A stretch of 64,000 bases of DNA from Fervidicoccaceae archaeon (GCA_038734945.1 JAVYOA010000009.1:62001-126000); one strand, 5' to 3'. Numbered from the stretch's first letter, positions 21,231 to 64,000 are shown. Translations and numbers: made by a program. Notes: generated from the letters alone by a model not told the origin.

Positions 21231-21316
21231 AGCAACTCCTCTATCAGCATATTCAATTATTAAATGCATAATGATTAAGTATATAAAAATGAAGAATTTT
21301 TTGGGATGTGCTGGTG

Positions 21317-22609
21317 ATGTCTGAGGATGGAGTTAGGATAAGTGGGACTCAAAGAAGGGCACTTATAGCTGGAACAACAGCATTCTTTGGAGGTTTTGCA
21401 GCAGTAGCACTTTTTAACATAACAGCAAAGACCCTTTCCGAGACACTGAACCTATCTCTCCTGCAAATAGGATGGCTTGTAGCCATACCAACACTGACAG
21501 GCTCACTAATGAGGATTCCATTTGGAGCGATGGTTGATCGATATGGAGGAAGAAGGATTATTTTACTTCAGCTACTTCTTGCACTTATAGGTATGATAGG
21601 GCTTCTCCTTTCCATCGGAGCTATAATGAATAGATCAATCACATCAAGCACTCTTGGATATGCTCTGCTCATGTTTTTCGGCGCCGTTGCAGGAATAGGA
21701 ATCTCAGTCTTCTCCTCTGGAATAGCCTATGTATCCTACTGGTTTCCTCAGAGAAAGCAGGGATATGCACTCGGCTTCTATGCAGGAATAGGAAACACGG
21801 CCCCGGGAATATTTACTGGGATTCTCCCATATGCTGTAGCATCCTTGGGCTTGCTGGGCTCATATGCTGCCTGGATGCTCATACTAATCGTTGTGATTCT
21901 TATCTTCTTCTTCACTGGTAAGGATCCCTACTATTTCCAGCTTCTTAAGAAATACAACAGAGAGAGAGCAATAGAGGAAGCTAGGAAGCTTGGGCAGGAG
22001 CTCATCCCCACTGGTTCAGCAAGAGAGAGCCTCATGAAGGCCTCAAAGCTTTTCAGAACTTGGATATTTGTGATACTGTACTTCACTTCCTTCGGAGGAT
22101 TTCTTGCCCTAACATCTTGGCTTCCAACATACTGGCAGAAGCTCTTCTCTCTCCCCTCTAGCCAGGCAGGGCTGATCTCAGGGATCCTCTTCTCACTCCT
22201 CGCATCCCTCATAAGAGTAGCAGGCGGATGGACCAGCGATAGAGCTGGAGGAGAGAGGGTTGCCGTATTATCCTTCACAGTCATTCTGCTTGGCAGCACG
22301 ATCATGATGTTAAGTGCATCTTTCTCCATATGCCTGGTTGGTATCCTTGTTCTAGCATTTGGAATGGGCTTCGCCAACGCTTCAACATTCAAGATGATTC
22401 CAAAATATGTTCCGGAAGCTATTGGAGGAGCTACTGGGTGGGTTGGAGGTCTAGGAGCTCTTGGAGGCCTCCTTCTTCCTCCCGCAATGGCCTGGTTTGC
22501 TCAAGAGTTTGGAACAAGAGGCTATTCGCTCGGCTTTTCGACTTTTGTAGTTCTAAGTGCTATTTCCCTAATCCTCTCTTTCATGGTGTTCAAACTTGCT
22601 AGAAAGTAG
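21317..22609 (+). CDS. narK: MFS nitrate/nitrite transporter
   Basis: GSLMRIPFG and ASLIRVAGGWTSD conserved Arg motifs, WFPQRKQGYALG, YFTSFGGF; 12 TM; heads the nar cluster. Confidence 0.9.
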   Translation: MSEDGVRISGTQRRALIAGTTAFFGGFAAVALFNITAKTLSETLNLSLLQIGWLVAIPTLTGSLMRIPFGAMVDRYGGRRIILLQLLLALIGMIGLLLSIGAIMNRSITSSTLGYALLMFFGAVAGIGISVFSSGIAYVSYWFPQRKQGYALGFYAGIGNTAPGIFTGILPYAVASLGLLGSYAAWMLILIVVILIFFFTGKDPYYFQLLKKYNRERAIEEARKLGQELIPTGSARESLMKASKLFRTWIFVILYFTSFGGFLALTSWLPTYWQKLFSLPSSQAGLISGILFSLLASLIRVAGGWTSDRAGGERVAVLSFTVILLGSTIMMLSASFSICLVGILVLAFGMGFANASTFKMIPKYVPEAIGGATGWVGGLGALGGLLLPPAMAWFAQEFGTRGYSLGFSTFVVLSAISLILSFMVFKLARK

Positions 22610-23291
22610 CATTTTGGCATCGATTCTCTGGGTCATTTTGCCATATGTAGTCGTAATGACATTCATTATTGGAAATATATACAGATATGTATTTTCACAG
22701 CAGTCATGGTCCTCCAGATCAAGTGAAATATTCGAGGAAAGACTTCTGCGAATTGGTGGACAGCTCTTTCACTACGGCTTGCTGCTTGTCATCTTTGGCC
22801 ACATCCTTGGGCTGTTCATTCCTCCTAGCATTACTGCTGCTTTGGGCATCAGCGATGAGGAGTACCACATGATAGCTATAGCCATGGGCGGAACAGCAGG
22901 AGGAGCAGCACTTCTCGGGAGCTTGATACTTCTTTGGAGAAGACTAGCAGATCCAAGAGTCAGGGCAACCAGCAGCAGCTCAGATACTCTGATTCTTATC
23001 TTAATAGTTCTTACAATGATGTTTGGGGAATTCAACACTGTAGTTTATAGCGCACTGCATGGTCCCTATGACTACAGAAGCACAATTGCTCCCTGGATCA
23101 GATCCCTATTTTACAGCCCAAACCCATCACTAATGACAAGTGTTCCCCTAACATATAAAATCCACATTTTTCTTGCTTACCTTGTCTTTTTCATGTGGCC
23201 TTTCTCCAGGCTAGTTCATGTATGGAGCGTTCCCATATTCTATCTGCGTAGGCCATGGATACTCTACAGGAGGCTGGAGAGATATGAATAG
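22596..23291 (+). CDS. narI: Respiratory nitrate reductase gamma subunit (di-heme cytochrome b)
   Basis: WSSRSSE, LFHYG...GHILG, KIHIF...PFSRLVH heme ligands. Confidence 0.95.
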   Translation: MLESSILASILWVILPYVVVMTFIIGNIYRYVFSQQSWSSRSSEIFEERLLRIGGQLFHYGLLLVIFGHILGLFIPPSITAALGISDEEYHMIAIAMGGTAGGAALLGSLILLWRRLADPRVRATSSSSDTLILILIVLTMMFGEFNTVVYSALHGPYDYRSTIAPWIRSLFYSPNPSLMTSVPLTYKIHIFLAYLVFFMWPFSRLVHVWSVPIFYLRRPWILYRRLERYE

Positions 23292-26200
23292 AGGGAATCC
23301 AATTGAGGAAGCTAAGAGGCAGCTTTTCCCAAAGGAGAGAATTGGCGAGTGGATAGAGATAGATAGAGCTGGAAGGGAGTGGGAGGAGCTCTATAGAAGA
23401 AGGTGGCAGCATGACAATGTAGTAAGATCTACGCATGGGGTTAACTGCACGGGATCATGCAGCTGGAAGATCTACGTGAAGGATGGATTGGTAGTATGGG
23501 AGCACCAGGCAACTGATTATCCGTCCAATTCCCCAGAGCTCCCCGACTATGAGCCAAGAGGATGTCCAAGAGGAGCGTCTTTCTCTTGGTATCTATACAG
23601 CCCGCTTAGAATAAAGCACCCCTATGTTAGGAGCGCATTGCTAAGGGCCTGGAGAGAGGAACTTTCGAGAACAAATGATCCGGTTCTGGCTTGGGAGAAA
23701 ATAGTGGAGAGCGAACATGGAAGGGCGTACAAGTTTGCCAGAGGCAAAGGAGGATTTGTTCGAACATCCTGGGATGAAGCTCTCGAGCTAATCTCAGCTG
23801 CTCTGATATACACCATAAGGAAATATGGACCGGATAGGATATTCGGCTTCACCCCAATCCCAGCAATGTCAATGGTAAGCTATTCCTCCGGATCAAGGTT
23901 CTTGGAGCTAATAGGAGGAGTCATGCTGAGCTTCTATGATTGGTATGCAGATCTTCCACCAGCCTCTCCTCAAGTTTGGGGGGAGCAGACAGACGTACCG
24001 GAGAGCGCTGATTGGCTGAACTCTCTATTCATAATTGTTTGGGGGACAAATTTAGCTATGACCAGGACTCCTGATGCTCACTTCCTCTCTGAGGCGAGAT
24101 ACAGAGGAGCAAAGGTTGCTGTCATCACACCAGATTACACCGACGTCACGAAGTTCGCAGACATATGGCTCTCTCCTAGGCCGGGAACTGATGGGGCCAT
24201 GGCCATGGCTATGTTGCATGTGATTTTGAATGAATTCTACGTGAAGAAAAGCACTCCCTACTTCATTGATTATGTGAAAAAATTTACAGATCTCCCATTC
24301 CTAGTAGTTTTGGAAAGGGAAAATGGTCAATATAGGACAGGGAGATTTCTCAGAGCTTCCGATATAGGAATTAATACCGAGAATGCGGAGTGGAAAACAG
24401 TCGTACTGAACTCAGAAGGAGGAGAGCTCTCAGTACCAAACGGAAGCATTGGATTCAGGTGGGGAAAGGAGAAAAAATGGAATTTGAGAATGGAGGACTC
24501 GCTAACAGGCAAGAAAATCGACCCCTATCTAACTCTCCTCGGCAATCACGATGAGATAGTTCAGGTGAGCTTTCCAGTCCTAGGAAAGGAAGCTATTAGA
24601 GGTGTTCCAGCGAGGAAGATCAGAGCGAGCGGGGGTGAGTTCCTCGTTACAACAGTTTTTGATCTTCTAGTAGCTCACGCTGGTGTATCGAGAGGATTGC
24701 CTGGGGACTATCCAGAATCCTACGATGATCCAAAACCATTTACTCCTGCTTGGCAGGAGGAAATAACAGGTGTCAGCAGAAAAGCTATTCAGCAGTTAGC
24801 CATCGAGTTCGCAGAGACGGCTGAGAAAACAAAGGGAAGCTCGATGGTAATAATAGGTCCTGGAGTTAACCACTGGTTCCATTCAGATCTGACTTACAGG
24901 GCAATAATATCCATGCTCATCCTCCTTGGAACTGTGGGAAAGAGAGGAGGAGGGCTTGCCCACTATGTTGGGCAAGAGAAAGTGAGACCGATTGATTCCT
25001 GGTCTCTGCTTGCTTTTGCTCTTGATTGGCAGAGACCCCCCAGACAGCAGAACACAACCTCCTGGATGTACATACATTCTGACCAATACAGATTCGAGGA
25101 CCTCAGCGCAAAAACGCTGAGCCCAAGGGCGAGATACGAGCATCCTGGAGATTACATAGTCGAGGCAGTAAAAAGAGGGTGGCTTCCCTTCTATCCTCAA
25201 TTCACCGAGAATCCAATTGAGCTTTACAAAAAGCTCAGCAATGAGGGTAAGCTGAAAGACGAGGAAATAAGGAAAATAGCAGCAGAAATGATAGATAAAG
25301 GAGAGCTGAAGTTTTCTGTGGAAGATCCAGATCACCCTGCTTCCTTTCCCCGCATTCTTTTTATCTGGAGAGCTAATCTGCTAGCTTCAAGCGGAAAGGG
25401 GCACGAATACATACTGAAGCACTTGGTTGGTGCTGAGAGCTCGCTGTCTGCCAAGGAAAGCGACGTTAGGCCAAACCTTATTGCTATGAGGGAACCTATA
25501 CCCGAGGGGAAGCTCGATCTAATTATCACTCTCGACTTCAGGATGAGCACCAGTGCCATTTACTCAGACATAATCCTTCCAGCAGCAACATGGTATGAGA
25601 AGAACGATCTGAGCACAACAGATCTCCATCCATTCATTCATCCATTCAATCAAGCAGTCCCTCCTGCATGGGAATCAAGAAGCGACTGGGACATATTTGT
25701 ATCACTATCAAAGAAGTTCACAGAATTAGCGTGCTCTAGGCTAGGAAAGGTGAAGGAAATTGTTCTCGTTTCTCAGCTTCATGACACGCCTGGAGAGCTG
25801 AGCGGAGAAGGGTCAAAGCCTTCCATATCAATTGTGGAGAGGGACTATTGCGATGTGCACCATAGAATGACATCTCTTGGACCTCTAGCCTCAAAATCTA
25901 TAGGAGCCAAGGGCATTTCGTGGAGCTCGGAGGAAGAATATTCAGAGCTCGTATTAATAAATGGAGCAGATGATCATGGTCATCCATTAATTGATAATGA
26001 CAGGAAGGCTGCGGAAGCTATATTGCATCTATCGAGTGTTACTAATGGAAGAGCATCACTGAAAGCCTTCAGAGCTCTCTCTGAAGCTACAGGCATTACA
26101 TTCGATGATATGGAAATCGATGCATCAAGAAGAACAAGCTTCACGGACTTGGCTTCTCAGCCAAGGAGGGTTCTAACTTCCCCCATATGGAGCGGGAAAG

Positions 26201-26820
26201 AAAAAGGTACTTATTCCCCCTTCACTCTCAACGTGGAGAATTCGGTTCCATTCAGGACGCTGACTGGCAGACAGCATATCTACATTGATCATCCCCTGTT
26301 TATTGAGTTCGAAGAACAGCTCCCGACCTACAAGCCACCTGTGTCTTTTGCCCCATTCCAAAAAGGAGAAGGCGAGGGGAAGATCGGTCTAGTGCTGAGA
26401 TATTTAACTCCGCATGGAAAGTGGCAGATTCACTCTACCTTCATGGATAACCTCTTCATGCTAACTCTATTCAGAGGAGGGCCGGTCATCTGGATAAGCA
26501 GGCATGATGCAGAGGCTCTCGGTGTGAAGGATAACGAATGGGTTGAGGCATCGAACAGAAACGGATCAATTGTAGCGAGAGCTGTTGTGAGCGATAGAAT
26601 ACCAAAGGGAGTGGCTATAATGTATCATGCTCAGGAGAGAACAATATCCGCAGGAAAAGATCCATCGGGCACTCACAACAGTCCAACTAGAACAAGAATA
26701 AAGCCAACGCTCCTTGCGGGGGGATATGCCCAGATAAGTTGGGCATTCAATTACTATGGTCCAACCGGAACTCAGAGAGATGAGCTAATACTTCTTAGAA
26801 AAGTAGGTGAGCAAAAATGA
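23284..26820 (+). CDS. narG: Respiratory nitrate reductase alpha subunit
   Basis: STHGVNCTGSC...EPRGCPRG FS0 motif, YDWYADLPP Mo-ligand Asp, TPHGKWQIHS; start at ATG 23284 overlapping the narI stop; no twin-arginine signal. Confidence 0.97.
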   Translation: MNRGNPIEEAKRQLFPKERIGEWIEIDRAGREWEELYRRRWQHDNVVRSTHGVNCTGSCSWKIYVKDGLVVWEHQATDYPSNSPELPDYEPRGCPRGASFSWYLYSPLRIKHPYVRSALLRAWREELSRTNDPVLAWEKIVESEHGRAYKFARGKGGFVRTSWDEALELISAALIYTIRKYGPDRIFGFTPIPAMSMVSYSSGSRFLELIGGVMLSFYDWYADLPPASPQVWGEQTDVPESADWLNSLFIIVWGTNLAMTRTPDAHFLSEARYRGAKVAVITPDYTDVTKFADIWLSPRPGTDGAMAMAMLHVILNEFYVKKSTPYFIDYVKKFTDLPFLVVLERENGQYRTGRFLRASDIGINTENAEWKTVVLNSEGGELSVPNGSIGFRWGKEKKWNLRMEDSLTGKKIDPYLTLLGNHDEIVQVSFPVLGKEAIRGVPARKIRASGGEFLVTTVFDLLVAHAGVSRGLPGDYPESYDDPKPFTPAWQEEITGVSRKAIQQLAIEFAETAEKTKGSSMVIIGPGVNHWFHSDLTYRAIISMLILLGTVGKRGGGLAHYVGQEKVRPIDSWSLLAFALDWQRPPRQQNTTSWMYIHSDQYRFEDLSAKTLSPRARYEHPGDYIVEAVKRGWLPFYPQFTENPIELYKKLSNEGKLKDEEIRKIAAEMIDKGELKFSVEDPDHPASFPRILFIWRANLLASSGKGHEYILKHLVGAESSLSAKESDVRPNLIAMREPIPEGKLDLIITLDFRMSTSAIYSDIILPAATWYEKNDLSTTDLHPFIHPFNQAVPPAWESRSDWDIFVSLSKKFTELACSRLGKVKEIVLVSQLHDTPGELSGEGSKPSISIVERDYCDVHHRMTSLGPLASKSIGAKGISWSSEEEYSELVLINGADDHGHPLIDNDRKAAEAILHLSSVTNGRASLKAFRALSEATGITFDDMEIDASRRTSFTDLASQPRRVLTSPIWSGKEKGTYSPFTLNVENSVPFRTLTGRQHIYIDHPLFIEFEEQLPTYKPPVSFAPFQKGEGEGKIGLVLRYLTPHGKWQIHSTFMDNLFMLTLFRGGPVIWISRHDAEALGVKDNEWVEASNRNGSIVARAVVSDRIPKGVAIMYHAQERTISAGKDPSGTHNSPTRTRIKPTLLAGGYAQISWAFNYYGPTGTQRDELILLRKVGEQK

Positions 26821-28247
26821 AAGTGAGAGCTCAAATATCGATGGTTATGAACCTGGACAAGTGTCTTGGCTGTCATACATGCAGCGTAACATGTAAGACA
26901 ACATGGACGAACAGAAGGGGAGCAGAGTATATGTGGTGGAACAATGTAGAGACAAGGCCAGGAGTGGGGTACCCACAGAAATGGGAAGATCAGGAGAAAT
27001 GGAAGGGGGGATGGAAGCTCGAAAATGGAGATCTCAAGCTCAGAGTAGGTGGAAGGACATCAAGGCTCCTCAGGATATTCTACAATCCTTGGATGCCTAG
27101 CATTGATGACTACTATGAGCCGTGGAGCTATACATACGAAAAACTCATAGAAGCGAAGGAAAATGAGAAGCCTCTCGCTGAGGTCAGATCCTCTATAACT
27201 CAGAAGCCTCTTACTTTGGAGAGAGGTCCAAATTGGGATGACGATCTGGCAGGATCACCCAAATTTGCATCTTCTGACCCAAATTTGGAGGAAGGTATGA
27301 GGCTGGAGTACGAAAGAATCTTCATGTTCTATCTTCCAAGAATATGCAATCACTGCCTCAATCCCTCCTGCGTAGCAGCCTGCCCTTCTGGTGCTATGTA
27401 CAAGAGAGAGGAAGACGGTATAGTTCTCGTGGATCAGAGCAGGTGTAGAGGATGGAGATACTGCATCTCAGCATGTCCATACAAAAAGGTCTACTATAAC
27501 TGGAACACACATAAGGCGGAGAAATGCATACTTTGCTATCCAAGAATAGAGACAGGCCTCCCCACTGTTTGTGCTGAGACCTGTGTTGGGAGAATGAGGT
27601 ACATGGGGCTTCTCTTATATGATGCAGAGAGAATAAGGGAGGCAGCTTCTGCAGAGGAAAGCGCTCTCCTGAAATCGCAACTGAGCATAATCCTTGATCC
27701 TAACGACCCGAAGATAGAAGAGGAAGCACTAAATCAAGGCATTTGGAAAGACTGGTTGGAATCTGCTAAAAAATCTCCAGTATTCAAGATGGTAAAAGAG
27801 TGGAAAATCGCCTTTCCCCTTCATCCTGAGTACAGAACGCTTCCAATGGTATTCTATATTCCTCCACTGAGCCCAATTCTCAGGATTTTCGAAGGAGAAG
27901 AGCTTGGAGAGCTCGAACCAGAGGACATTTTCCCAAATGTTAGGAATATGAGAATCCCAGTTGCCTATTTAGCAAAGATGTTCGCAGCAGGTGATGAGGA
28001 TTCTGTTCGCAAAGCAATCGAGAAATTGATCGCCGTAAGAGCATATATGAGGAGCATCTCTCTTGGGAGACCAAACCTGAATGTGCTAAGTGAGGTCGGG
28101 CTAAGTGAGAAAGATGCGAGAGAGATGTACAGGCTTTTGGCAGTTGCTAAATACGAAGATAGATTTGTTGTACCAAAGGCTCACAGAGAACAGTCACTGA
28201 AAGCATCAATTGAGCAGGGGTATGCTGGATTAGATGAGCTGAGGTAG
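26817..28247 (+). CDS. narH: Respiratory nitrate reductase beta subunit
   Basis: NLDKCLGCHTCSVTCK, CNHCLNPSCVAACP, CRGWRYCISACP, CILCYPR...CAETCVG. Confidence 0.97.
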   Translation: MKVRAQISMVMNLDKCLGCHTCSVTCKTTWTNRRGAEYMWWNNVETRPGVGYPQKWEDQEKWKGGWKLENGDLKLRVGGRTSRLLRIFYNPWMPSIDDYYEPWSYTYEKLIEAKENEKPLAEVRSSITQKPLTLERGPNWDDDLAGSPKFASSDPNLEEGMRLEYERIFMFYLPRICNHCLNPSCVAACPSGAMYKREEDGIVLVDQSRCRGWRYCISACPYKKVYYNWNTHKAEKCILCYPRIETGLPTVCAETCVGRMRYMGLLLYDAERIREAASAEESALLKSQLSIILDPNDPKIEEEALNQGIWKDWLESAKKSPVFKMVKEWKIAFPLHPEYRTLPMVFYIPPLSPILRIFEGEELGELEPEDIFPNVRNMRIPVAYLAKMFAAGDEDSVRKAIEKLIAVRAYMRSISLGRPNLNVLSEVGLSEKDAREMYRLLAVAKYEDRFVVPKAHREQSLKASIEQGYAGLDELR

Positions 28248-28252
28248 TTGGA

Positions 28253-28795
28253 TTGAAGCAAGAATTTGAGGATAGCTTTAGGTTCTTTGAAGTCGTGGGA
28301 AAGCTCCTGGAATATCCTGATACTGCCTTTTTTGAGTCAATCCATGAAGCAGAAAAAGCAATAGGAAAATTCCCAAGCAGAACCACGATACTGGAGAAAA
28401 TTGTGCTATTTAGAAAAGAAATTTCAGCACTGGATCTTTATCAGCTGCAAGAGCTCTACTCTAAGACATTTGACTTCTCAGCAGATTCTACGCTGAATAT
28501 ATCGTATTATTTTTCTGGAGATTCCAATGATAGAGGAAGAGTACTAGCCTATTTTTCCTCCTTCTATAGGAAAGCAGGAGAAGATCCTCCTAAGGATGAT
28601 TTGCCAGATAGCGTTCCCCATCTTCTCAAGCTAATCTCGCAACATCCAGAGCTGTTCCAGGAGATAGTGGCTCTTCTGGCAGTCTCTCTGCGCAAAATAG
28701 CAGAAGCCCTCAAAGAAAATCCTTATAGGAACGTCATCGAGGCAATAGAAATAGCAATTGAAGATCTAGCATTTAATTGGAAAAAGTGTGCATAG
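28253..28795 (+). CDS. narJ: Nitrate reductase molybdenum cofactor assembly chaperone
   Basis: LLEYP, LQELYSKTFDF, RGRVL, DLPD; position after narH. Confidence 0.88.
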   Translation: MKQEFEDSFRFFEVVGKLLEYPDTAFFESIHEAEKAIGKFPSRTTILEKIVLFRKEISALDLYQLQELYSKTFDFSADSTLNISYYFSGDSNDRGRVLAYFSSFYRKAGEDPPKDDLPDSVPHLLKLISQHPELFQEIVALLAVSLRKIAEALKENPYRNVIEAIEIAIEDLAFNWKKCA

Positions 28796-31943: not shown

Positions 31944-32097
31944 AATCTAAAATTCCCAGAATGGATATCTCTCAACCTTAATTCTCTGCACTCTTGCGTC
32001 TTTCCTAGCCATACAAGATTTACATGATCACTTGCTTGGTCCGATCAATATGTGATGTTTATATATGAAGTATCTTAAAAATAATAACGGTGAGAAA

Positions 32098-38958: not shown

Positions 38959-39024
38959 TTAGTCTCAATTTTTTATAAAAAATCTTTTATAATATTCCGG
39001 CGAATAGAAAATTAGGTGCTTTAT

Positions 39025-41406: not shown

Positions 41407-41407
41407 A

Positions 41408-42292: not shown

Positions 42293-42295
42293 GCT

Positions 42296-42772: not shown

Positions 42773-42854
42773 CACCAGCATCATTTGTTTTTTGAGAACA
42801 CACTCTCAATATTATTTTTTAGTTCTATCTATACTTAAATAGAGCTGTGAGCCC

Positions 42855-43700
42855 ATGGATGTAGGAAAGATTGATGCTATTGTTCTGGCAGGTGGACTGG
42901 GCAGGAGGTTCAGAGAGAAGGGTGGAGGAGACAAGCTCTTCTTCAATGTTGATGGCAAACCAGCAATAGTAAGAGTTGTGGAAAATCTCGAGAGGAGCTT
43001 TTCAAGAGTTATTGTGACTACTAAGCAGAATAGGCTAAAGGAGCTTCAAGCATTGATCGGAACGAAGGAGAGCGTGATGATAGTTGCGGATCAGATGGAA
43101 GAATACACTCCTGTAGCAGGAATGATAGCAGGAGCTAGAGAAGCACGAAGTGATCTTGTTTTCATCACCTCAGTAGATTCTCCATTCATTGAAGGTGATC
43201 TTCCAGCTGCGCTAATTGAGCTGAGTGGCAACTGCTGTGAAGCTGTTATTCCAATATGGCCCAACGGAAGGATAGAGCCCCTCCTCTCCATATACTCCAG
43301 GAGATCCCTTCTGGATGCAGAAAAAGCGATTGGGCTGAAGCCTGTTAGGGCAACCGATCCAGCAAGGCTGAGCACCTCCATTGCCATGATACCAATTGGG
43401 ATGCTCCTGGAAAGCGGTGTTAGATTGAGGGAGCTTGCTAACATAAACGAGCCTTCGGACTTAGAGAGGCCTCCAACGATCCCTTTGCCCTATGACGAAT
43501 ATGGGCTAACTCGAATTCACTATGGGAACAAGCACCACTATATGGAGGGAATTAGGAGCTTAGAGAATGGAGATCTCGCTTCAGCATCCTTGAGCTTCTC
43601 AGAGGAAGCAGTTTTCCTTTTCAAGCACAGACCTAGTGCTCTTTCTCTCCATGCCCTGCTGGATTCGCTCTTTTTTCTGAGGCTTCTCTCCAAAAGCTAA
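42855..43700 (+). CDS. mobA: Molybdenum cofactor nucleotidyltransferase (MobA-like) with C-terminal extension
   Basis: VLAGGLGRRF...DK, VDSP, EPLLSIY, NINEPSDL. Confidence 0.8.
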   Translation: MDVGKIDAIVLAGGLGRRFREKGGGDKLFFNVDGKPAIVRVVENLERSFSRVIVTTKQNRLKELQALIGTKESVMIVADQMEEYTPVAGMIAGAREARSDLVFITSVDSPFIEGDLPAALIELSGNCCEAVIPIWPNGRIEPLLSIYSRRSLLDAEKAIGLKPVRATDPARLSTSIAMIPIGMLLESGVRLRELANINEPSDLERPPTIPLPYDEYGLTRIHYGNKHHYMEGIRSLENGDLASASLSFSEEAVFLFKHRPSALSLHALLDSLFFLRLLSKS

Positions 43701-54520: not shown

Positions 54521-54910
54521 TTGGAAATGCCTGAGCAGTATTTACTGAGGGACTTAATCAGAAAAATTCAGGAAGCAGGAATGTGCAAGGAAGAGCCTCC
54601 AGTGCCAGATCTCGATAAAGCTGTAGATCTGCCCACTGAAAATCTGAATACAATCTCAAAAATCTTATCAACAATCTCCGAGCCTTTAAGACTGAAGATT
54701 CTCTATCTTCTCCGCCAATCTCCGCTGCCAGTATGCATAATAGCATTTTTGTTGAAGACTGATAGAACTCTAGTTTCGCATCACATGAATAAGCTCCTTG
54801 AGCTTGGGCTCGTTAAAGTAGAGCGCAGTAGGCGCTTCAGCATATACAGCCTTACGGATCAGGGGAAGGAACTGGTAAAAGCCATCGAAAAAATATTAGA
54901 AAACAGATAA
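54521..54910 (+). CDS. ArsR/SmtB-family transcriptional regulator
   Basis: ISEPLRLKILYLL, LPVC, VSHHMNKL...GLV...YSLT. Confidence 0.88.
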   Translation: MEMPEQYLLRDLIRKIQEAGMCKEEPPVPDLDKAVDLPTENLNTISKILSTISEPLRLKILYLLRQSPLPVCIIAFLLKTDRTLVSHHMNKLLELGLVKVERSRRFSIYSLTDQGKELVKAIEKILENR

Positions 54911-55983: not shown

Positions 55984-57231
55984 TCAAGATATTGAAGCTA
56001 AGTAGGAAGCTATATCCGATATAGACCCTGAAACTACTTCCCGGTAGCTTCCATCTCTGACATTGATACTATACAGCGTTATGCTCTTTATTCCCCCATA
56101 ATCCCCCCAATACAACGAATATCTCTGCAGCTCACTATATGCCATATTTGAGGTTATATGACCGTAAGCGTCTCTTGTCAGATATCTGCCTGCCGAATCT
56201 ATTATAGTTAATTCTCCTCCCTGAACTGGCAAGAAAATGGCAGCATGTCTGCTTCCATCCCCCATTTCTATGTCCGCAAAATACAAAAGGTAATCTTTTC
56301 CATACACATTTAACATATAATATTTAATCATGGCATAAGCTAATACCGCCTGATCATCGCAATCCCCCTGACCATATTCAATAGTAAAGAGAGGAGTCTG
56401 AACATAGTTTTGAAGTGGTAAGTAGAATATTGAAGTCAAGAAGGAGTAGTTGCCGAAGTTCATAAAGAAAGGAATAGGAAAGGGCATATCTATATCATAG
56501 ACATATGCAACGTTATTCACAATATAGTTATATATATTCTGTATTGAACCCCAAATATCGTATTTTGATACACCTGCATTATAAACATACTTCCCTATAG
56601 CCGAGACCTCATCCCAATTGAGGGTTCTCGAGAATGCATCGGGAATCGTCTCCAGCGAATATAGATAGTTTATAAGATCCGAGGCACTTTCGTTCAAACT
56701 GATATATAGAGATAGCAAGTAGTTCATGCTGTTATTGAGGTTGGTATAGTTCTCTTGGAGACTATTATACAGTGCAGTTATCTGCTGAAACCTTGCTGAT
56801 AGGTTGCCGTAGTCCGCATTCAAGTTGCTGTACTTGATGCTAAGTGCAGTGTAGTTATTCTGAAGCTGAGAATATCTATCATTAAGTGCGGCATATTGCG
56901 CTTGAAGATCCATGAAGCTCTTGATCGTTGAGTTGTACTCAGAATAGAGCTGGGCATAGGAATTCGAAAGATCTGAATAACTCTTTGACAGATTGGAGTA
57001 TTTATCTGAGAGCTGTGCATACTGATCTTGTAGAGTACGATAGCTTGCATTTATTATGAGCAAAGTAGTATTCAGATATGCATTCTCAATCGAGAGTTCG
57101 TGGTTGGTTTTTGCAAGAGCATCATTAGTTTTCTGAAGAGCTGAGTAACCGATTTCCCATAGAATATTTGAAGTAGTAATAATTACTATCAATACTATAG
57201 AAACAATTTTTAAATAATTCACATATCTCAC
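55984..57231 (-). CDS. Membrane-anchored coiled-coil protein with C-terminal transglutaminase-like domain
   Basis: N-terminal TM helix; heptad Y/L repeats over about 150 aa; QTP...GQGDCDDQA...RHAA...IIDSAG Cys-His-Asp triad. Confidence 0.78.
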   Translation of the reverse strand: MRYVNYLKIVSIVLIVIITTSNILWEIGYSALQKTNDALAKTNHELSIENAYLNTTLLIINASYRTLQDQYAQLSDKYSNLSKSYSDLSNSYAQLYSEYNSTIKSFMDLQAQYAALNDRYSQLQNNYTALSIKYSNLNADYGNLSARFQQITALYNSLQENYTNLNNSMNYLLSLYISLNESASDLINYLYSLETIPDAFSRTLNWDEVSAIGKYVYNAGVSKYDIWGSIQNIYNYIVNNVAYVYDIDMPFPIPFFMNFGNYSFLTSIFYLPLQNYVQTPLFTIEYGQGDCDDQAVLAYAMIKYYMLNVYGKDYLLYFADIEMGDGSRHAAIFLPVQGGELTIIDSAGRYLTRDAYGHITSNMAYSELQRYSLYWGDYGGIKSITLYSINVRDGSYREVVSGSISDIASYLASIS

Positions 57232-57283
57232 CGTTACTATTTAGAAACTAAAAAATTTTTATTGTTGGAGAACGAACAATCTC

Positions 57284-57313
57284 TCAAATTCCCAAGAAAA
57301 TTTGGGATTTTGA
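57284..57313. repeat. Inverted repeat in the divergent promoter region upstream of the qmoC-like operon
   Basis: TCAAATTCCCAA-GAAAAT-TTGGGATTTTGA (12-bp arms, one mismatch). Confidence 0.45.
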
Positions 57314-57441
57314 TCTATTCTAGCAAAATTCATTTGAATTAAAATTATTCTTTTTAAAAATTTCTATAATAGGGAAAAGATAAAAAATTTCAAAAAATAT
57401 GTAGAAATTCTTATATATTTATTTTAGTAAAATTATAATAT

Positions 57442-58545
57442 ATGTACCAAACAGTGGTTCCAAAATCAAAGGTTGTTGAGGAAATAAGTAGGCTGGGAGG
57501 CATCGGTCTTCTGAAGTGCTATCAATGCGGTCTGTGCACAGCAATTTGCCCCATTTCCGAGATCTTTCAGAGCAGCTTCAGGAGAACTATAAGATATGCT
57601 CAGCTAGGAATAGCAAACAGGATCATTTCGGATCCCACACCATGGCTCTGTCACGGATGTGGTGAGTGCACAGCATCATGTCCCAGAGAAGCTAATCCTG
57701 GAGACGTGATGGCAGCTGTAAGAAGGTATCAAACAATCCAGTTCTCTCCTGGAAGAGTGGCTTCACTTTTCAATTTCGGCAGAACATCAATTCCGCTCAT
57801 TCTATTCATCTCCTTTTTTGCATCTGCTGCGCTTTATCTGCTCAGAGGAACTCCAAATATGTCCGAGGTCAATATATACTCCCTCATCCCGTACTCAACC
57901 ATACATGCTCTTGGAGTCATCCTAGCAGCATTCATACTTGTCATAGCAGCATATAGCCTGTTACAGATGTACAGGAAGCTAGGAAGAATGAAAGAGCATC
58001 CCAAGAGTGTAGGCAGCATGGAAAAAATTAGCAAGTTATTGAGCGTTATTATATTAGCTGGATTAATTCAGTTGAATTTCAAAAGATGCTCCAACTATCT
58101 CTCTAGGTATATAGCTCATCTCTCCATTTTCTGGGGATTCATAGGATTGTTTGTAGCTAGCAGCATTCACTATGTAAGCGATATTTTTGCTCTTGGTATA
58201 AGCTCATACGTTCCCAGAGCGGTCGGATTAATTTCTGGGGCCTTTCTAATATATGGGAGCTCTTACTACATCTACAAGAGGCTGAGAAAGGATGAAGCTT
58301 TCATTAGACAGAGCACATATTCTGACTGGCTCTTTCTCATTCTCCTTCTCATAGCAGGGATTACCGGCTTTCTCCTCGATGCATTCATATACTTCAACAT
58401 CCCCCTTGCTGCATATTTCACATATGCTGCTCATCTCATATCCGTGTTCGATTTGATCGTTCTCGCCCCATTCACCAAGTTTGCCCATTCCGTCTACAGA
58501 CCAATTGCTATTTGGATCAATGAGATAAGAGGTGCCAATCCTTGA
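57442..58545 (+). CDS. QmoC-like protein: HdrC-type 2x[4Fe-4S] domain fused to a membrane di-heme cytochrome b domain
   Basis: KCYQCGLCTAICP, WLCHGCGECTASCPR...PGDVMAAVR; TM helices with IAHL, IHY, AAHL and TKFAHSVYRP histidines. Confidence 0.85.
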   Translation: MYQTVVPKSKVVEEISRLGGIGLLKCYQCGLCTAICPISEIFQSSFRRTIRYAQLGIANRIISDPTPWLCHGCGECTASCPREANPGDVMAAVRRYQTIQFSPGRVASLFNFGRTSIPLILFISFFASAALYLLRGTPNMSEVNIYSLIPYSTIHALGVILAAFILVIAAYSLLQMYRKLGRMKEHPKSVGSMEKISKLLSVIILAGLIQLNFKRCSNYLSRYIAHLSIFWGFIGLFVASSIHYVSDIFALGISSYVPRAVGLISGAFLIYGSSYYIYKRLRKDEAFIRQSTYSDWLFLILLLIAGITGFLLDAFIYFNIPLAAYFTYAAHLISVFDLIVLAPFTKFAHSVYRPIAIWINEIRGANP

Positions 58546-59954
58546 TTTTTCCATTGAAAGATCTCAGTTCCTCTCAAGAGTTGCGGAATGCATCTAGCTT
58601 AAAATTGAGAACTAACGCGCATAGCTCGAAGCCTGTTCTAGTAGTAGGAGCAGGAATAGCAGGAATCCAAGCAGCTCTCGATTTGGCAGAGCAAGGAATT
58701 AAGGTCTACCTCATAGATAGAAATCCGAGCATAGGAGGAAAAATGGCCCTTCTAGACAAAACATTTCCAACCCTTGATTGTGCTTCATGCATTCTTGCGC
58801 CCAAAATGGCATCTGTGCAGAGAAATCCAAACATAAAAATTCTCACGCTATCTGAGTTAAAGCAAATAGATGGGAAGGCCGGAAACTTCCATTGCAGAAT
58901 CCTCAAGCATCCAAGCTATGTAGACTGGGAAAAGTGCACTGGATGTGGCACATGCATAGAGAAGTGCCCCCAGAAAGTTCCAGATGAGTTCAATCTAGGA
59001 ATGAGCAAGAGAAAAGCAATCTTCATAGCTTTTCCCCAAGCTGTTCCGAGAAAGGCGGTTATAGATGCAGCGAATTGCTTGAGGTTGAACCCCCCTCAGA
59101 AACTGAAAGAAAGAGCTGGGGGGAGAGCGATCTGCGGCATTTGCGAGAGATTTTGTCCTGCAGGAGCCATAAAGTTCAGCGATGCATCAGAGGAAGTCAT
59201 TATTGAAGCATCCGCCGTGATAATTGCAACTGGTATGGAAATTTATGATGCTCGGAATGTTCCCGAGTATGGCTATGGGAAATATCAAAACGTTTTTGTT
59301 CACCTCGAATTCGAGAGAATGCTCTCAGCTACGGGACCGACTGGAGGATTGATATTAAGGAGAAGCGATGGGAAGCCCCCGAGAAGAATCGCATGGATTC
59401 AATGCGTAGGCTCCAGAGATATAAGGTTCAACCACTACTGCTCATCTTTCTGCTGCATGGCAGCAACCAAGCAAGCAGTTCTTGCCAAGGAACACTTGGA
59501 AAATGTGAGCTGCACTATATACTACATGGACATCAGAGCTTTTGGCAAGGGATTCAACGAGTTCATAGAGAGGGCAAAGAACGAGTTTGGCATTAAATAT
59601 GTTAGAGGAAAAGTTGCTAGAATTGAGGAGGATCCAAGCTCTAGGGATCTCACGCTCATATATGAGGACACCTCCCATAGCTACCTGAAGAGAGAGAGCT
59701 ACGATTTGGTGGTCCTGGCAGTAGCAATTAGGCCAAACAGGATCTATCCAATAATCCCAGTTGAAACGAATGAGGATGGCTTCGTGAAGCTTAAAGATCC
59801 CTACATAGATCCCGTTTCTACAACAGTCGATGGAATATTCGTGGCTGGAGTGGCAGCTGGAGCAAAGGATATACCCGATTCAGTCAGTGAGGCCAGTGCA
59901 GCTGCTGCTAGAGCAGCCCTCATCGCTAAGCAAAAAGGTGGTGCTGGAAGTTGA
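58542..59954 (+). CDS. hdrA: HdrA-family flavoprotein, short form (no N-terminal domain, no C-terminal ferredoxin; QmoA-like layout)
   Basis: GAGIAG, LDKTFPTLDCASCIL, inserted ferredoxin, LEFERML, QCVGSRD, YCSSFCCM, KDIPDSV. Confidence 0.9.
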   Translation: MIFPLKDLSSSQELRNASSLKLRTNAHSSKPVLVVGAGIAGIQAALDLAEQGIKVYLIDRNPSIGGKMALLDKTFPTLDCASCILAPKMASVQRNPNIKILTLSELKQIDGKAGNFHCRILKHPSYVDWEKCTGCGTCIEKCPQKVPDEFNLGMSKRKAIFIAFPQAVPRKAVIDAANCLRLNPPQKLKERAGGRAICGICERFCPAGAIKFSDASEEVIIEASAVIIATGMEIYDARNVPEYGYGKYQNVFVHLEFERMLSATGPTGGLILRRSDGKPPRRIAWIQCVGSRDIRFNHYCSSFCCMAATKQAVLAKEHLENVSCTIYYMDIRAFGKGFNEFIERAKNEFGIKYVRGKVARIEEDPSSRDLTLIYEDTSHSYLKRESYDLVVLAVAIRPNRIYPIIPVETNEDGFVKLKDPYIDPVSTTVDGIFVAGVAAGAKDIPDSVSEASAAAARAALIAKQKGGAGS

Positions 59955-61900
59955 GCGAGAAGCCAAGGATAGGCATCTACATCTGCCACTGCGGTCTTAA
60001 CATAGCAGGAACTGTGGACGTAGAAGAGCTCGCGAGATATGCAGCATCTCTTCCCGACGTCATCGTAGCGAGAGATTATGTTTTCATGTGCTCTGAGCCT
60101 GGGCAGAATCTCATAAAGGAGGACATAAAGGAGAAAGAACTTAACAGAATAGTTATAGCAGCATGCTCTCCATCTATGCATGAACAGACTTTTAGATCAG
60201 TTCTCGAATCTGCAGGACTCAACAAATACTTACTAGAAATGGCCAACATAAGAGAGCACTGCTCTTGGATACATTCAGACAGAAGAAAGGCGACAGAGAA
60301 AGCAAAGGAGATAGTCAGAATGGCAGCTTCCAAGGCAAGGTACTTGGAGCCAATAGAAGAGAAAACTTTCCCAACTACAAGAAACGTCATGATCTTGGGC
60401 GGAGGAGTTGCTGGAATGAGAGCAGCTATAGAGCTGGCAGAATACGGCTTTGAGGTCTATCTTGTCGAGAGAAAGCCCATTCTAGGAGGGAAATCTGCAG
60501 TCATAGGTTACATTTCTCCTGGAATAAGGGGTAAAGAAATAGTTCAAAAGATGTTCGAGAGAATAAGGGGAAATCCAAGGATACATGTTTTCACTCAAGC
60601 TGAGCTCATTGAGCTAAAGGGATTTGCTGGGAACTTCACGGGAAAGCTGAGAATTCATCCAAAACATGTGAATGAAAGATGTAACGAGTGTGGGGAATGC
60701 GAAGATGCTTGTCCCATAGAAATATCAAATGAATATGACTTCTCTCTGAGCAGGAGAAAGGCAATTTACAAGCCATTTCCCGGCTCATACCCAGAGGGCT
60801 ATATTATAGATGATAGAGTTTGCGTCAAGTGCGGAGAGTGTGTTAGAGCATGCAGGAGAAAAGCTATAGATCTAGATGGGGAGGAGAAGTTAATTGAGAT
60901 CAAATTCGGAGCTCTCATCATAGCTGTAGGCTATGATCCCTACAGACCCTCCAAAGGCGAGTTTGGATATGGCTTGAGTGACTCCGTGCTGACTCTCTTC
61001 CAGCTAGAAAGATTGCTTGACGAGGATGGTCCCACCAGGGGGGAGCCGATTGTAAGAGGGAAGATTCCAGAGACAATAGCTTTTGTTCAGTGTGTGGGGT
61101 CTAGAAGCACAACCCCCTCATCAAGACCTTACTGCTCGAGAATGTGCTGCACATCTGCTCTAACCAATGCCATAAGGCTGAAGGAAAAACATCCGGAAAT
61201 TGAGATATTCTTCATATACAGAGATATAATGACCTATGGGAGCGATGAGGGGCTCTACGAAGAAGCCGGAAAGAGAATGATAAAGTTCATAAAGTACGAG
61301 GGAGAACCTCCACAGGTCCAAATTACACCCGAGGGAGTATTCATAGAAGTCACCGATTACCTTCTGCAGGAAAGCATAAGAATACCGGTAGACGCTGTCA
61401 TCCTTTCGACCGGAATGATTCCTCCAAGGGATCTGGGAGACGTCATTGCTGTTACAAGGGCAACATGTGGAGAGGAGGGGTTTCTGAGGGAGGCCCACAT
61501 AAAGCTTGCCCCCGTCGAATCACCAACCAGAGGAATATACATAGCAGGATCTGTTTCAGGTCCCAAGAACATAAGAGAGAGCATAATTTCCGGGAGTGCT
61601 GCAGCTGCTAAGGCTATGGCCCTCATTAGTAGAGGAGAAGTTGTTGCTGAACCAATGATAGCCAAGGTTGATGAAGAAAGATGCAGCGGCTGCGGGATCT
61701 GCATTTCTGCATGCCCCTATAATGCCATTTCGATAGAGGAAAAGGAAGGTGATAGACTGGCAAGAGTGGAAGATGCTCTCTGCATGGGATGCGGGACATG
61801 CGCCTCAGCGTGCCCGTCTGGAGCAATGCAGCAGTTGGGTTTCAAGGACATTCAGATAAGAGCTCAGATATCCGCTTTATCGGAGGTCGAAGGGAAATGA
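59951..61900 (+). CDS. hdrA: HdrA-family flavoprotein, full length
   Basis: RIGIYICHCGLNI, AACSP, NIREHCSW, GGGVAG, inserted ferredoxin, QCVGSR, CSRMCC, two C-terminal CxxCxxCxxxCP motifs. Confidence 0.92.
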   Translation: MSEKPRIGIYICHCGLNIAGTVDVEELARYAASLPDVIVARDYVFMCSEPGQNLIKEDIKEKELNRIVIAACSPSMHEQTFRSVLESAGLNKYLLEMANIREHCSWIHSDRRKATEKAKEIVRMAASKARYLEPIEEKTFPTTRNVMILGGGVAGMRAAIELAEYGFEVYLVERKPILGGKSAVIGYISPGIRGKEIVQKMFERIRGNPRIHVFTQAELIELKGFAGNFTGKLRIHPKHVNERCNECGECEDACPIEISNEYDFSLSRRKAIYKPFPGSYPEGYIIDDRVCVKCGECVRACRRKAIDLDGEEKLIEIKFGALIIAVGYDPYRPSKGEFGYGLSDSVLTLFQLERLLDEDGPTRGEPIVRGKIPETIAFVQCVGSRSTTPSSRPYCSRMCCTSALTNAIRLKEKHPEIEIFFIYRDIMTYGSDEGLYEEAGKRMIKFIKYEGEPPQVQITPEGVFIEVTDYLLQESIRIPVDAVILSTGMIPPRDLGDVIAVTRATCGEEGFLREAHIKLAPVESPTRGIYIAGSVSGPKNIRESIISGSAAAAKAMALISRGEVVAEPMIAKVDEERCSGCGICISACPYNAISIEEKEGDRLARVEDALCMGCGTCASACPSGAMQQLGFKDIQIRAQISALSEVEGK

Positions 61901-62331
61901 ACAGAGAGTGGACTCCCAGAATAGTAGCTTTTGTTTGCAACTGGTGCACCTATGCAGCAGCTGATCTGGCTGGGACTAGCAGGATGCAGCAGCCCGACAG
62001 CGTGAGGATAGTTAGGCTCATGTGCTCTGGTAGAGCAGATCCCCAATTCGTTCTAGAGGCAATAGCTAATGGGGCGGATGGGGTAATAGTTGCTGGGTGC
62101 CATCCGCCCTCAGATTGTCACTATCAAGAAGGGAACTACAGAGCCTTTAGAAGATTCATGCTCCTCCGAAGGGTGCTGGAATCCATGGGTGTCGAGAAGG
62201 AGAGATTCAGACTGGAGTGGATCTCAGCCTCGGAAGCGAGGAAGTGGGTAGAAGTAGTGAGGAGCATGACGGAGGATCTCAAGAGGCTTGGCCCGCTCAG
62301 AAGGGACGAAGAGGGGATAAAGGTTGAATAA
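61897..62331 (+). CDS. mvhD: [2Fe-2S] hydrogenase delta subunit
   Basis: FVCNWCTYAAADLAG, MCSGR, GCHPPSDCHY, WISASE; ATG 61897 overlaps the hdrA stop. Confidence 0.95.
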   Translation: MNREWTPRIVAFVCNWCTYAAADLAGTSRMQQPDSVRIVRLMCSGRADPQFVLEAIANGADGVIVAGCHPPSDCHYQEGNYRAFRRFMLLRRVLESMGVEKERFRLEWISASEARKWVEVVRSMTEDLKRLGPLRRDEEGIKVE

Positions 62332-63343
62332 ACTGAAAGTAGCATGGTATTGGTGTGCTTCATGCGGAGGCTGTGAAGAATCTTTCGTTGATCTCTCGGA
62401 GGAGCTGGTGGAGTTCTTCGAATCAGCCGATCTCGTGTTTTGCCCCGTAGCAACAGATTTCAAAAAGGAAGATGTTGAGAGGCTGCCAGATGCTTCTGTT
62501 GACGTTGCTCTAATAAATGGGGGAATAAGACTGAGCGAGCACGAAGAAATGGTTAAGCTATTGAGAAGAAAGTCCAAAATTGTAGTGGCATACGGAACAT
62601 GTTCTAGCTGGGGAGGAATTCCAGGCCTCTCAAATTTGTACAATAAGGAAGAGATTTTAAGAGCAAAATACCTTGATCCGCCTTCCATCAACAATCCTAC
62701 GCATGCAGTTCCTGCTGAGAGAACGAGGCTCACCAAGCTGGGAGCAAATCTGGAGCTTCCAGCCTTCCTAGACTCTCTCCTTCCTCTAAATGCTGTCATA
62801 GATGTTGATTACTATATTCCAGGCTGCCCTCCTACACCTGAAGTCTTCAAGAATGCATTAAAGGCTCTAATAAGCGAAAAGCTGCCTCCAAAAGGAAGCA
62901 TAATCGGTGCTTCAGACAAGTCGCTATGCGATGAATGTCCACTGAATTCAACCAAGCCTGAGAAGATCTTGCTGAAGGAGCTTAAAAGACCTCACGAAAC
63001 TATAGCGGATGCAAAGAAGTGCTTGCTTACCCAGGGCCTTCTCTGTCTTGGACCAGTTACAAGGGGAGGATGCGGAGCTCTATGCATTAAGGCCGCCATG
63101 CAGTGTACAGGATGCTTTGGTCCACTAGATGGAATAGCTGACTACGGAGGAAAGGCCATCTCATTCATAGGAACAATAATGGACTATTCCCCTGCTGAAG
63201 AAGAGGAGCTGGAGCGTGCTTACAGTAAAATAAAGGATTGGGTGGGAGTAGTGTACAAGTACACTCTACCTGCCTCAAAGCTGGGAGGGAGAGTGAGGAG
63301 AGAAAAGACAAAAAGGCAGGAGGAGGCCGAGATAGATGAGTAG
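62324..63343 (+). CDS. mvhG: [NiFe]-hydrogenase small subunit (group 3c type)
   Basis: CASCGGCE, GTCSSWGGIPGL, IPGCPP, CDECP...CLL...CLGPVTRGGCGALC...CTGCFGP; no Tat signal. Confidence 0.92.
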   Translation: MNKLKVAWYWCASCGGCEESFVDLSEELVEFFESADLVFCPVATDFKKEDVERLPDASVDVALINGGIRLSEHEEMVKLLRRKSKIVVAYGTCSSWGGIPGLSNLYNKEEILRAKYLDPPSINNPTHAVPAERTRLTKLGANLELPAFLDSLLPLNAVIDVDYYIPGCPPTPEVFKNALKALISEKLPPKGSIIGASDKSLCDECPLNSTKPEKILLKELKRPHETIADAKKCLLTQGLLCLGPVTRGGCGALCIKAAMQCTGCFGPLDGIADYGGKAISFIGTIMDYSPAEEEELERAYSKIKDWVGVVYKYTLPASKLGGRVRREKTKRQEEAEIDE

Positions 63344-64000
63344 CAGAAAGATTGTGATCGATCCCATAACTAGACTAGAAGGGCACGGAAAAATAGCCAT
63401 AATTCTCGATGATGAGGGAAACTGCTTGAGAGCATATTTTCAGGTGCCGGAGCTCAGGGGATTTGAAAAGTTCCTGCAGGGAAGGCATGCTGAGGATGCG
63501 CCAATCATAACCCCAAGGATATGCGGTGTTTGTCCAACAGCTCATCATACAGCATCAGTAAAGGCTCTAGATGATCTATATAAAGCCCCTCCCCCCTCTC
63601 CAGCCCTGAAGATAAGGGAGATGTTCTACAATCTATTTATGCTTGAGGATCACGCACTTCACTTCTACGTTCTTAGCGGACCGGACTTCATAGTGGGGCC
63701 AGATGCTCCTAGGGCTGAAAGGAACATAGTTGGAGTCATGAATAAGGTCGGCAAGGAACTCGTGCTGAGGATCATAACGATCAGAAAGAGAATAAGGAAG
63801 ATGATGGAGATTATAGGAGGAAGGACCATTCACCCAGTCTTCGGTATGCCTGGAGGAATTTCGAGACCACTAAGCATTGAACAGGTAAAAGAAATTAGAG
63901 CTCTAGCAGACGAAGCTCTCAGCCTCTCCCTCATCACTCTAGAAATGTTCAAAAAGATTGTTCTGGGAAACAAAAGCTATCTACAATTGATTGAGAGTGA
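63336..64000 (+). CDS. mvhA: [NiFe]-hydrogenase large subunit, truncated by window end
   Basis: Own translation: MSSRKIVIDPITRLEGHGKI...ELRGFEKF...PRICGVCPTAHH (L1 RxCGxC motif). Confidence 0.93.
   Translation, partial: MSSRKIVIDPITRLEGHGKIAIILDDEGNCLRAYFQVPELRGFEKFLQGRHAEDAPIITPRICGVCPTAHHTASVKALDDLYKAPPPSPALKIREMFYNLFMLEDHALHFYVLSGPDFIVGPDAPRAERNIVGVMNKVGKELVLRIITIRKRIRKMMEIIGGRTIHPVFGMPGGISRPLSIEQVKEIRALADEALSLSLITLEMFKKIVLGNKSYLQLIES

Follow-up and report, generated by a model that had tools for sequence, protein, structure and literature searches.

The coupling of the quinone pool to low-potential chemistry by HdrA/Qmo flavoproteins has been an open question since the discovery of QmoABC. 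In Candidatus (Ca.) Methanoglobus nevadensis, a 'fascinating gene cluster' that comprises MvhABG, a pair of HdrA homologues and a fusion of QmoC with HdrC has been described, and 'electron flow between H2, ferredoxin and menaquinone' has been speculated upon (Buessecker et al., bioRxiv 10.1101/2022.12.01.518715). The cluster of Ca. M. hypatiae is described as highly transcribed, and H2 bifurcation to menaquinone and ferredoxin has been hypothesised for it (Lynes et al., ISME J 2024, PMC10945360). Qmo complexes of 'type II', which are closer to HdrA and occur with or without Apr/Dsr, have also been distinguished, their role being given as unknown (Neukirchen et al. 2023, PMC10504309). Here, we describe an operon of six genes, which opens with a qmoC-like gene and closes with the hydrogenase gene mvhA, at the end of a 64,000 nt stretch (the window) from a Fervidicoccaceae archaeon (GCA_038734945.1, JAVYOA010000009.1:62001-126000).

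The probability that these six genes encode one membrane-anchored, flavin-based bifurcating hydrogenase, which would pass electrons from H2 to a membrane quinone and to ferredoxin, is put at about 55 %. The original prediction, made from the window, held that no characterised complex of such composition was known. That part stands, as none was found in the literature or in the PDB; the novelty it implied does not, since both the composition and the bifurcation idea had been published for Ca. Methanoglobus in 2022 and 2024. Only genomic proposals, and no biochemical or structural study of this type of complex, were found in the literature, in which the cited papers were covered without their supplements, and neither the literature nor a PDB sequence search yielded a solved structure of a complex with a QmoC-type anchor. 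Because the idea is already published, the value of the present locus lies in the choice of a test system rather than in discovery. The case adds a genome with no protein carrying a CCG (HdrB/HdrD) domain, in which the operon is the sole visible route from H2 to quinone, congeners that lack both the operon and NarG, and a membrane anchor of different ancestry.

Six overlapping genes and the cofactor sites of their products

The source genome (G000) comprises 1.34 Mb in 9 contigs and is 99.95 % complete, and the window corresponds to G000:C9:62001-126000. The operon consists of six + strand genes in the order qmoC-like, short hdrA, full-length hdrA, mvhD, mvhG and mvhA, all with intact reading frames. 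Their mutual overlap, as originally predicted, was borne out by the open reading frames (ORFs) and by family matches, and the five junctions overlap by 4, 4, 4, 8 and 8 nt once the start of mvhD is corrected. The ORF call had placed this start at 61789, and ATG 61897 fits the homologues, the FlpD domain and an ATGA overlap with the hdrA stop. The E-values rule out chance resemblance, and none of the seven antisense ORFs within the operon has a Pfam match.

The first gene (57442..58545, + strand) encodes a QmoC-like membrane subunit of 367 aa, in which an HdrC-like domain with two [4Fe-4S] motifs precedes a NarI-like multi-helix cytochrome b domain. The Pfam families Fer4_8 (HdrC-like 4Fe-4S dicluster) and Nitrate_red_gam match residues 23-83 and 253-313, respectively, and the top NCBIfam family is qmoC (NF038018; E 1.8e-68, 231.6 bits). 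A sequence search of the PDB matched the N-terminal domain to solved HdrC chains (E 1.4e-15) and found no Qmo-type chain. In an alignment of 45 QmoC-like homologues, the eight cluster cysteines, H226, H331 and H349 are invariant, and the position of H155 is histidine in 32 of the 45, the window protein among them; the four histidines retained here are candidate ligands for two hemes. An AlphaFold2 model of the subunit was obtained with a mean predicted local distance difference test (pLDDT) score of 88.4 and a predicted template modelling (pTM) score of 0.87. The top Foldseek rows for this model are HdrC, mycobacterial EtfD and NarI at E 0.017-0.7, and since no PDB match reaches E <= 0.001 they are counted as supporting evidence only. 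A search of the genome for NarI-like proteins returned NarI and the QmoC-like subunit only.

The two HdrA proteins are complementary. The short copy (58542..59954, + strand; 470 aa, QmoA-like) is limited to the FAD/thioredoxin-reductase domain with the inserted ferredoxin domain, and neither the N-terminal nor the C-terminal domain is present. It aligns to positions 134-560 only of the HdrA model and to residues 145-564 of 5odc_A (415 bits), and it keeps the FPTLDCASC motif that contains Cys197. The full-length copy (59951..61900, + strand; 649 aa) has all four domains of methanogen HdrA, aligns to model positions 1-644 and to residues 2-648 of 5odc_A (630 bits), and retains the cluster cysteines of its N-terminal, inserted and C-terminal domains, while its Cys194/Cys197 segment is replaced by a cysteine-free stretch. 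This split of the motif, with Cys197 in the short copy and not in the long one, recurs in all 16 short/long pairs compared (the window pair, those of the related genomes G033 and G018, and 13 public loci, some with a hydrogenase and some lacking one). The same complementarity was described for tandem HdrA genes of anaerobic methanotrophic (ANME) archaea and taken to indicate an obligate heterodimer, each N-terminal cluster being completed by the Cys197 that the partner protomer contributes and the ferredoxin branch running via the inserted ferredoxin domain (Chadwick et al. 2022, PMC9012536). Taken together with the 16 of 16 pairs, that account makes an obligate asymmetric heterodimer with one complete bifurcation path the best reading of the present pair, by analogy.

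The remaining genes encode the hydrogenase module. MvhD (61897..62331, + strand; 144 aa), the predicted [2Fe-2S] adaptor, matches FlpD over its full length (E 1e-51), has VhuD as its best NCBIfam family (135 bits) and is present once in the genome. The small subunit MvhG (62324..63343, + strand; 339 aa) is VhuG/MvhG-like, with a match to Pfam Oxidored_q6 and VhuG as the best NCBIfam family (211.8 bits). The gene of the [NiFe] large subunit MvhA (488 aa) starts at 63336 on the + strand, runs to the window end at 64000 and continues to window-equivalent position 64802 (full gene, L001 8336-9802). The protein has intact nickel-iron motifs (RICGVC and DPCLAC) and a C-terminal extension after the histidine, the part that a maturation protease removes. 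Its closest solved relatives are 7t2r_D (383 bits) and the methanogen MvhA 5odc_F (381 bits), and its best NCBIfam family is VhuA, at 396 bits against a cut-off of 800. Assignment to group 3c is based on the nearest relatives and on the MvhD/MvhG context, and the Mvh-type hydrogenase with MvhD and MvhG, as first proposed, agrees with the best families (VhuA, VhuD, VhuG) and with 5odc_F among the best relatives. Genes for HypA, HypD, HypE-like and HypF maturation proteins and for one HycI-type protease are present elsewhere in the genome.

All cofactor motifs required for the proposed bifurcation are present in the operon proteins. In the proposed mechanism, MvhA would oxidise H2 in the cytoplasm, and MvhG and MvhD would relay the electrons to the long/short HdrA heterodimer, namely to its C-terminal ferredoxin domain and its FAD, and this flavin would split electron pairs. 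The high-potential electron would leave via the thioredoxin-reductase-domain cluster, both [4Fe-4S] clusters in QmoC's HdrC-like domain and the b hemes to quinone, a branch that would replace HdrB and heterodisulfide. The low-potential electron would travel through the long HdrA's N-terminal cluster, whose fourth ligand would be donated by the short HdrA, and via the inserted ferredoxin domain onwards to ferredoxin. The quinol could be re-oxidised by NarGHI, and the reduced ferredoxin could be used by the group 4 membrane hydrogenase or in biosynthesis. This path is that of the 5ODC complex as summarised by Chadwick et al. 2022 (PMC9012536), and we infer by analogy that it applies to the window complex. 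We also infer formation of the complex, quinone as its acceptor, bifurcation, the direction of flow and the link to Nar, and the bifurcating reading as such is plausible. Quinone is estimated to be a stronger oxidant than heterodisulfide, so that the energetics should be at least as favourable as with the latter.

Distribution of the operon and ancestry of its membrane anchor

The survey of relatives covered 60 genomes of the same genus, family and order, among which only G018, G012 and G033 contain a full-length QmoC-like match. The complete six-gene order of the window recurs in G033. In G018 (L014 5600-10671) and G012 (L015 5819-10956) the order is mvhD-hdrA(short)-hdrA(long)-qmoC, and no hydrogenase match occurs in the 16-17 kb around qmoC. 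The two congeners (87 % and 98 % complete) have neither a QmoC-like gene nor NarG. The conservation of the gene order extends to public species-representative genomes, in which a QmoC-like protein is encoded by 595 stretches or more. When the best 80 were classified, the complete order qmoC-hdrAs-hdrAl-mvhD-mvhG-mvhA was found in five (two Thermoprotei, one Thermoproteota and two Bathyarchaeota metagenome-assembled genomes (MAGs)), interrupted by contig ends in two and rearranged in one from Bathyarchaeia; 49, mostly from bacteria, have hdrAs-hdrAl-qmoC with no hydrogenase match, and 23 are too short or otherwise different. The six-gene order is thereby conserved over several archaeal classes, G033 and the five complete public loci included.

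This conservation bears on the reading that the six proteins form no single complex or that the operon is silent, which is considered very improbable. In its favour, the operon is known here as genes alone and is absent from the closest relatives; against it, the six frames are intact, all cofactor ligands are conserved and the gene order is kept across several archaeal classes. Hot-spring metagenomes of at least two studies contain the locus. No RNA dataset is listed as containing it, and one metatranscriptome, of which about 3 % of the run was read, gave 0 reads at the locus, the DNA run of the same study having it; at that depth the result carries no weight on expression.

The membrane anchor and the soluble module, as judged from their trees, are of different ancestry. 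In the short HdrA tree (37 rows), nine qmoC-first rows lie on one side of a branch with a Shimodaira-Hasegawa (SH)-like support of 98, and the window operon adjoins L059 and L053, with an identity of up to 70 %. The anchor was compared with those of L053, L059, L016, L036 and L037. In the QmoC tree, the window protein groups with L036 and L037, and L053, L059 and G033 form a separate, well-supported clade. Forcing the window protein together with L053, L059 and G033, a grouping chosen after the trees were seen, lowered the log-likelihood by 127.8 and was rejected by the approximately unbiased (AU) test (p-AU 8.7e-07). The Thermoprotei MAG L053 carries two tandem QmoC-like genes ahead of hdrA-mvh (L053 7253-9549). 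Differential loss from an ancestor with two anchors was rejected as an explanation, as these genes are only 36 % and 30 % identical to the window QmoC. Since the grouping is rejected and L053 holds no counterpart, the anchor was swapped on one or more occasions, with the soluble module retained. Such a mismatch between anchor and soluble module has apparently not been reported before.

The flanks of the operon differ in their conservation. Upstream lies an AT-rich intergenic spacer of 210 nt (57232..57441, + strand), in which a TATA-like element, TTATATAT (57411-57418, + strand), is located 24-31 nt (around 27 nt) ahead of the start codon of qmoC; spacer and element are presumed to be an archaeal promoter. 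Reading of the contig beyond the window located the mvhA stop 802 nt past the window end, followed at 31 nt by a convergent gene of a major facilitator superfamily (MFS) transporter and then by an Opp-type peptide ATP-binding cassette (ABC) transporter. No hdrB was found downstream of mvhA in this part of the contig, so that the check proposed in the original prediction, reading past 64000, turned up transporter genes in place of an HdrB subunit. In the five closest genomes, the operon DNA has no match and only the downstream MFS/Opp genes do. As the upstream flank is likewise unmatched in these genomes, no clean insertion site can be defined. Further upstream, a gene divergent from the operon (55984-57231, - strand) encodes a protein of 415 aa whose N-terminal half is a long coiled coil and which weakly matches the transglutaminase-like DUF553, and an ArsR-family regulator lies at 54521-54910 of the window.

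Electron acceptors and alternative readings

The absence of an HdrB/CCG subunit and of AprAB, first noted for the window, was found to extend to the whole genome. The CCG domain (PF02754) has 0 matches in the genome, the control search being positive in 12 of 14 known genomes, and there are 0 matches in the genome to aprA (TIGR02061), to the sulfite-reductase NIR_SIR domain and to the heme-copper oxidase COX1. CCG proteins are present in all five of the other genomes with the six-gene operon that were examined, which makes the present genome an unusually clean case with no HdrB/HdrD-type partner in trans.

No group 1 uptake hydrogenase was found in the genome, which has just two further [NiFe] enzymes, a group 3b-like sulfhydrogenase (contig C1) and a group 4 membrane hydrogenase (contig C3), the latter with intact nickel-iron motifs. 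No path from H2 to quinone is visible other than the operon. The lack of a group 1 enzyme also favours a simpler enzyme, a plain non-bifurcating H2:quinone oxidoreductase in which all electrons pass through HdrA and QmoC and ferredoxin is uninvolved, as H2-driven nitrate respiration would need some H2:quinone enzyme and the role of ferredoxin is visible here in sequence motifs only. Nevertheless, the whole ferredoxin branch of methanogen HdrA is retained: the N-terminal cluster domain is present, both HdrAs have their inserted ferredoxin domain, and the trans Cys197 motif recurs in 16 of 16 pairs. Group 1 enzymes manage simple transfer from H2 to quinone with cytochrome b alone, and a retained ferredoxin branch would be pointless for that task. 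This simpler reading is accordingly regarded as unlikely, though it is the strongest competitor of the bifurcating one.

A candidate sink for the quinol is the nitrate reductase encoded by narK-narI-narG-narH-narJ (21308..28795, + strand), which lies outside the operon, about 30 kb from it. The cluster is of bacterial style, with narI ahead of narG. NarG (1598 bits; curated NCBI cut-off 1084), NarH (738; 524), NarI (212; 106) and NarJ (67; 59) all pass their cut-offs, and the NarK family match (188 bits) lies below its own. The suggestion that NarGHI could serve as quinol sink is upheld by the scores of its three subunits. The likely start of NarG is ATG 23284, and the protein has no twin-arginine motif, which points to a cytoplasm-facing, quinol-dependent nitrate reductase.

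The presence of NarI above its cut-off implies that the cell should have a quinol pool. A UbiA-like prenyltransferase gene beside UbiD (C3:71410-73801) and a UbiE-like methyltransferase gene (C1:50704-51444) hint at quinone synthesis and are the sole pointers to it. A gene of the UbiA family that resembles heme O synthase (G000:C1:22307-23191) scores 207.7 bits against a cut-off of 210.3, despite there being no heme-copper oxidase subunit I. The QmoC-like hemes could instead reduce an acceptor other than quinone, such as a different lipophilic carrier or a partner at the outer face of the membrane. The lack of any detected known menaquinone pathway, the absence of the fourth histidine from some QmoC forms and the occurrence of the same operon in the Bathyarchaeia MAGs L052 and L056 would fit such an acceptor, one preprint describing Bathyarchaeia as having no known quinone synthesis pathway. 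On the other hand, NarI, a quinol oxidase subunit, passes its curated cut-off, the UbiA-like, UbiD and UbiE-like set is present, and the purified QmoC hemes of sulfate reducers were reduced by quinols (Ramos et al. 2012), which leaves a non-quinone acceptor improbable.

Several observations weigh against the reading of the operon as a quinone-linked bifurcating hydrogenase that feeds nitrate respiration. Whole-genome searches for the futalosine pathway (MqnA/D) and for the classical menaquinone pathway (MenB) gave 0 matches each. The QmoC-like subunit, at 231.6 bits, falls short of the equivalog cut-off of 300 of NF038018, every Foldseek match of its model to NarI has E > 0.01, and L053, L059 and G033, to which the soluble module is most closely related, have Glu or Asp at the position of H155. 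NarG is above its cut-off in five of the 61 genomes of the order sample (that of the window included), and its distribution departs from that of the operon: G033, the sole other operon carrier among the 60 relatives, has no NarG, and the NarG carriers G003, G007, G015 and G054 have no full-length QmoC-like match (a weak partial one in G003 and G007). The link between the operon and Nar is for these last two reasons circumstantial and not general.

The direction of electron flow may also be the reverse of that proposed, an option that the original prediction had left room for. The complex would then form H2 from ferredoxin and quinol by confurcation, or drive quinone reduction with ferredoxin and vent surplus electrons as H2 in peptide fermentation. 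HdrA systems are reversible in principle, and the genome, which encodes Opp transporters, a DppA-like peptidase and an H2-evolving group 4 hydrogenase of ferredoxin type, resembles that of a peptide fermenter. However, quinol is estimated to be too oxidising to form H2 unless H2 is very low, a dedicated H2-evolving membrane hydrogenase is already present, and the absence of both the operon and Nar from the two congeners fits H2 as a respiratory donor better. Reverse operation is consequently given little credence, about as little as the non-quinone acceptor.

A more far-reaching version of the bifurcating reading is possible but doubtful. According to it, the complex may be the sole entry of H2 into nitrate respiration and may carry out true bifurcation with no thiol-disulfide chemistry, as no CCG protein is encoded, perhaps using a quinone made by an unknown pathway, and the group 4 hydrogenase may recycle the ferredoxin and so pump additional ions. 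Should H2 enter by this route alone and bifurcation depend on quinone, no natural system would be cleaner than this genome for a proof that HdrA bifurcation can depend on quinone. With a hydrogenase as the source of electrons, such a complex would reveal whether the high-potential acceptor of HdrA bifurcation can be quinone in place of heterodisulfide, and if so, bifurcating H2 oxidation would extend from methanogens to respiring organisms. The use of this genome is as a test system, in which no CCG protein can act in trans and H2-dependent nitrate reduction offers a read-out.

Other genes of the genome may be recorded here. Window positions 39016-43700 encode a molybdenum hydroxylase of CoxL/M/S type (796, 299 and 158 aa) and, after it, a MobA-like nucleotidyltransferase, and a second CoxM/S-like pair is located at C1:20919-22282. 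A fused E1 alpha/beta component of a 2-oxoacid dehydrogenase (685 aa; window 32065-34122) is encoded in a host that is otherwise anaerobe-like. The radical S-adenosylmethionine (radical-SAM) ORF at window 29288-29953 covers Pfam model positions 59-165 of 166, possibly because its true start is upstream of the one called or because the gene is truncated.

Comparison with known systems

The methanogen MvhAGD-HdrABC complex (5ODC) shares with the window operon close homologues of MvhA, MvhG, MvhD and the long HdrA, and its HdrC is homologous to the HdrC-like domain described here. The window operon differs in having neither HdrB nor heterodisulfide, and its HdrC-like domain is fused to a cytochrome b membrane domain, so that the complex should be membrane-bound. 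Moreover, methanogen HdrA is a homodimer whose copies each combine the N-terminal domain with Cys197, in contrast to the asymmetric heterodimer predicted for the window proteins.

QmoABC of sulfate reducers and sulfur oxidisers, type II included, shares the short HdrA-like protein, the long HdrA-like protein and the HdrC-cytochrome b membrane subunit, with hemes presumed to be quinone-linked. The window QmoC has the canonical architecture but scores 231.6 bits against the cut-off of 300. Canonical QmoB has a fused C-terminal MvhD-like domain, whereas the long HdrA of the window ends after its C-terminal ferredoxin domain and MvhD is encoded by a separate gene (144 aa). Canonical QmoABC is linked to the APS (adenosine 5'-phosphosulfate) reductase AprAB, for which the window genome has 0 AprA matches. 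The window operon adds a hydrogenase, and electrons probably flow towards quinone and not from it.

The tandem HdrA pairs of ANME archaea share a copy in which the N-terminal domain is missing and Cys197 is present; the term QmoC is absent from the main text of the paper that describes them (PMC9012536), and the present operon has a QmoC-like gene. The closest counterpart, by its published description, is the 'Mvh-Qmo-Hdr' cluster of Methanoglobus (Archaeoglobi), which shares MvhA/G/D, two HdrA proteins, the HdrC-QmoC fusion and the absence of HdrB and AprAB. The function proposed for it, transfer of H2 electrons to menaquinone and ferredoxin, is shared as well and is a genomic proposal in both cases. 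The two differ in that Ca. M. hypatiae retains HdrD-type (CCG) proteins and the window genome has none, and in that the window host is a non-methanogenic hot-spring archaeon with a nitrate reductase.

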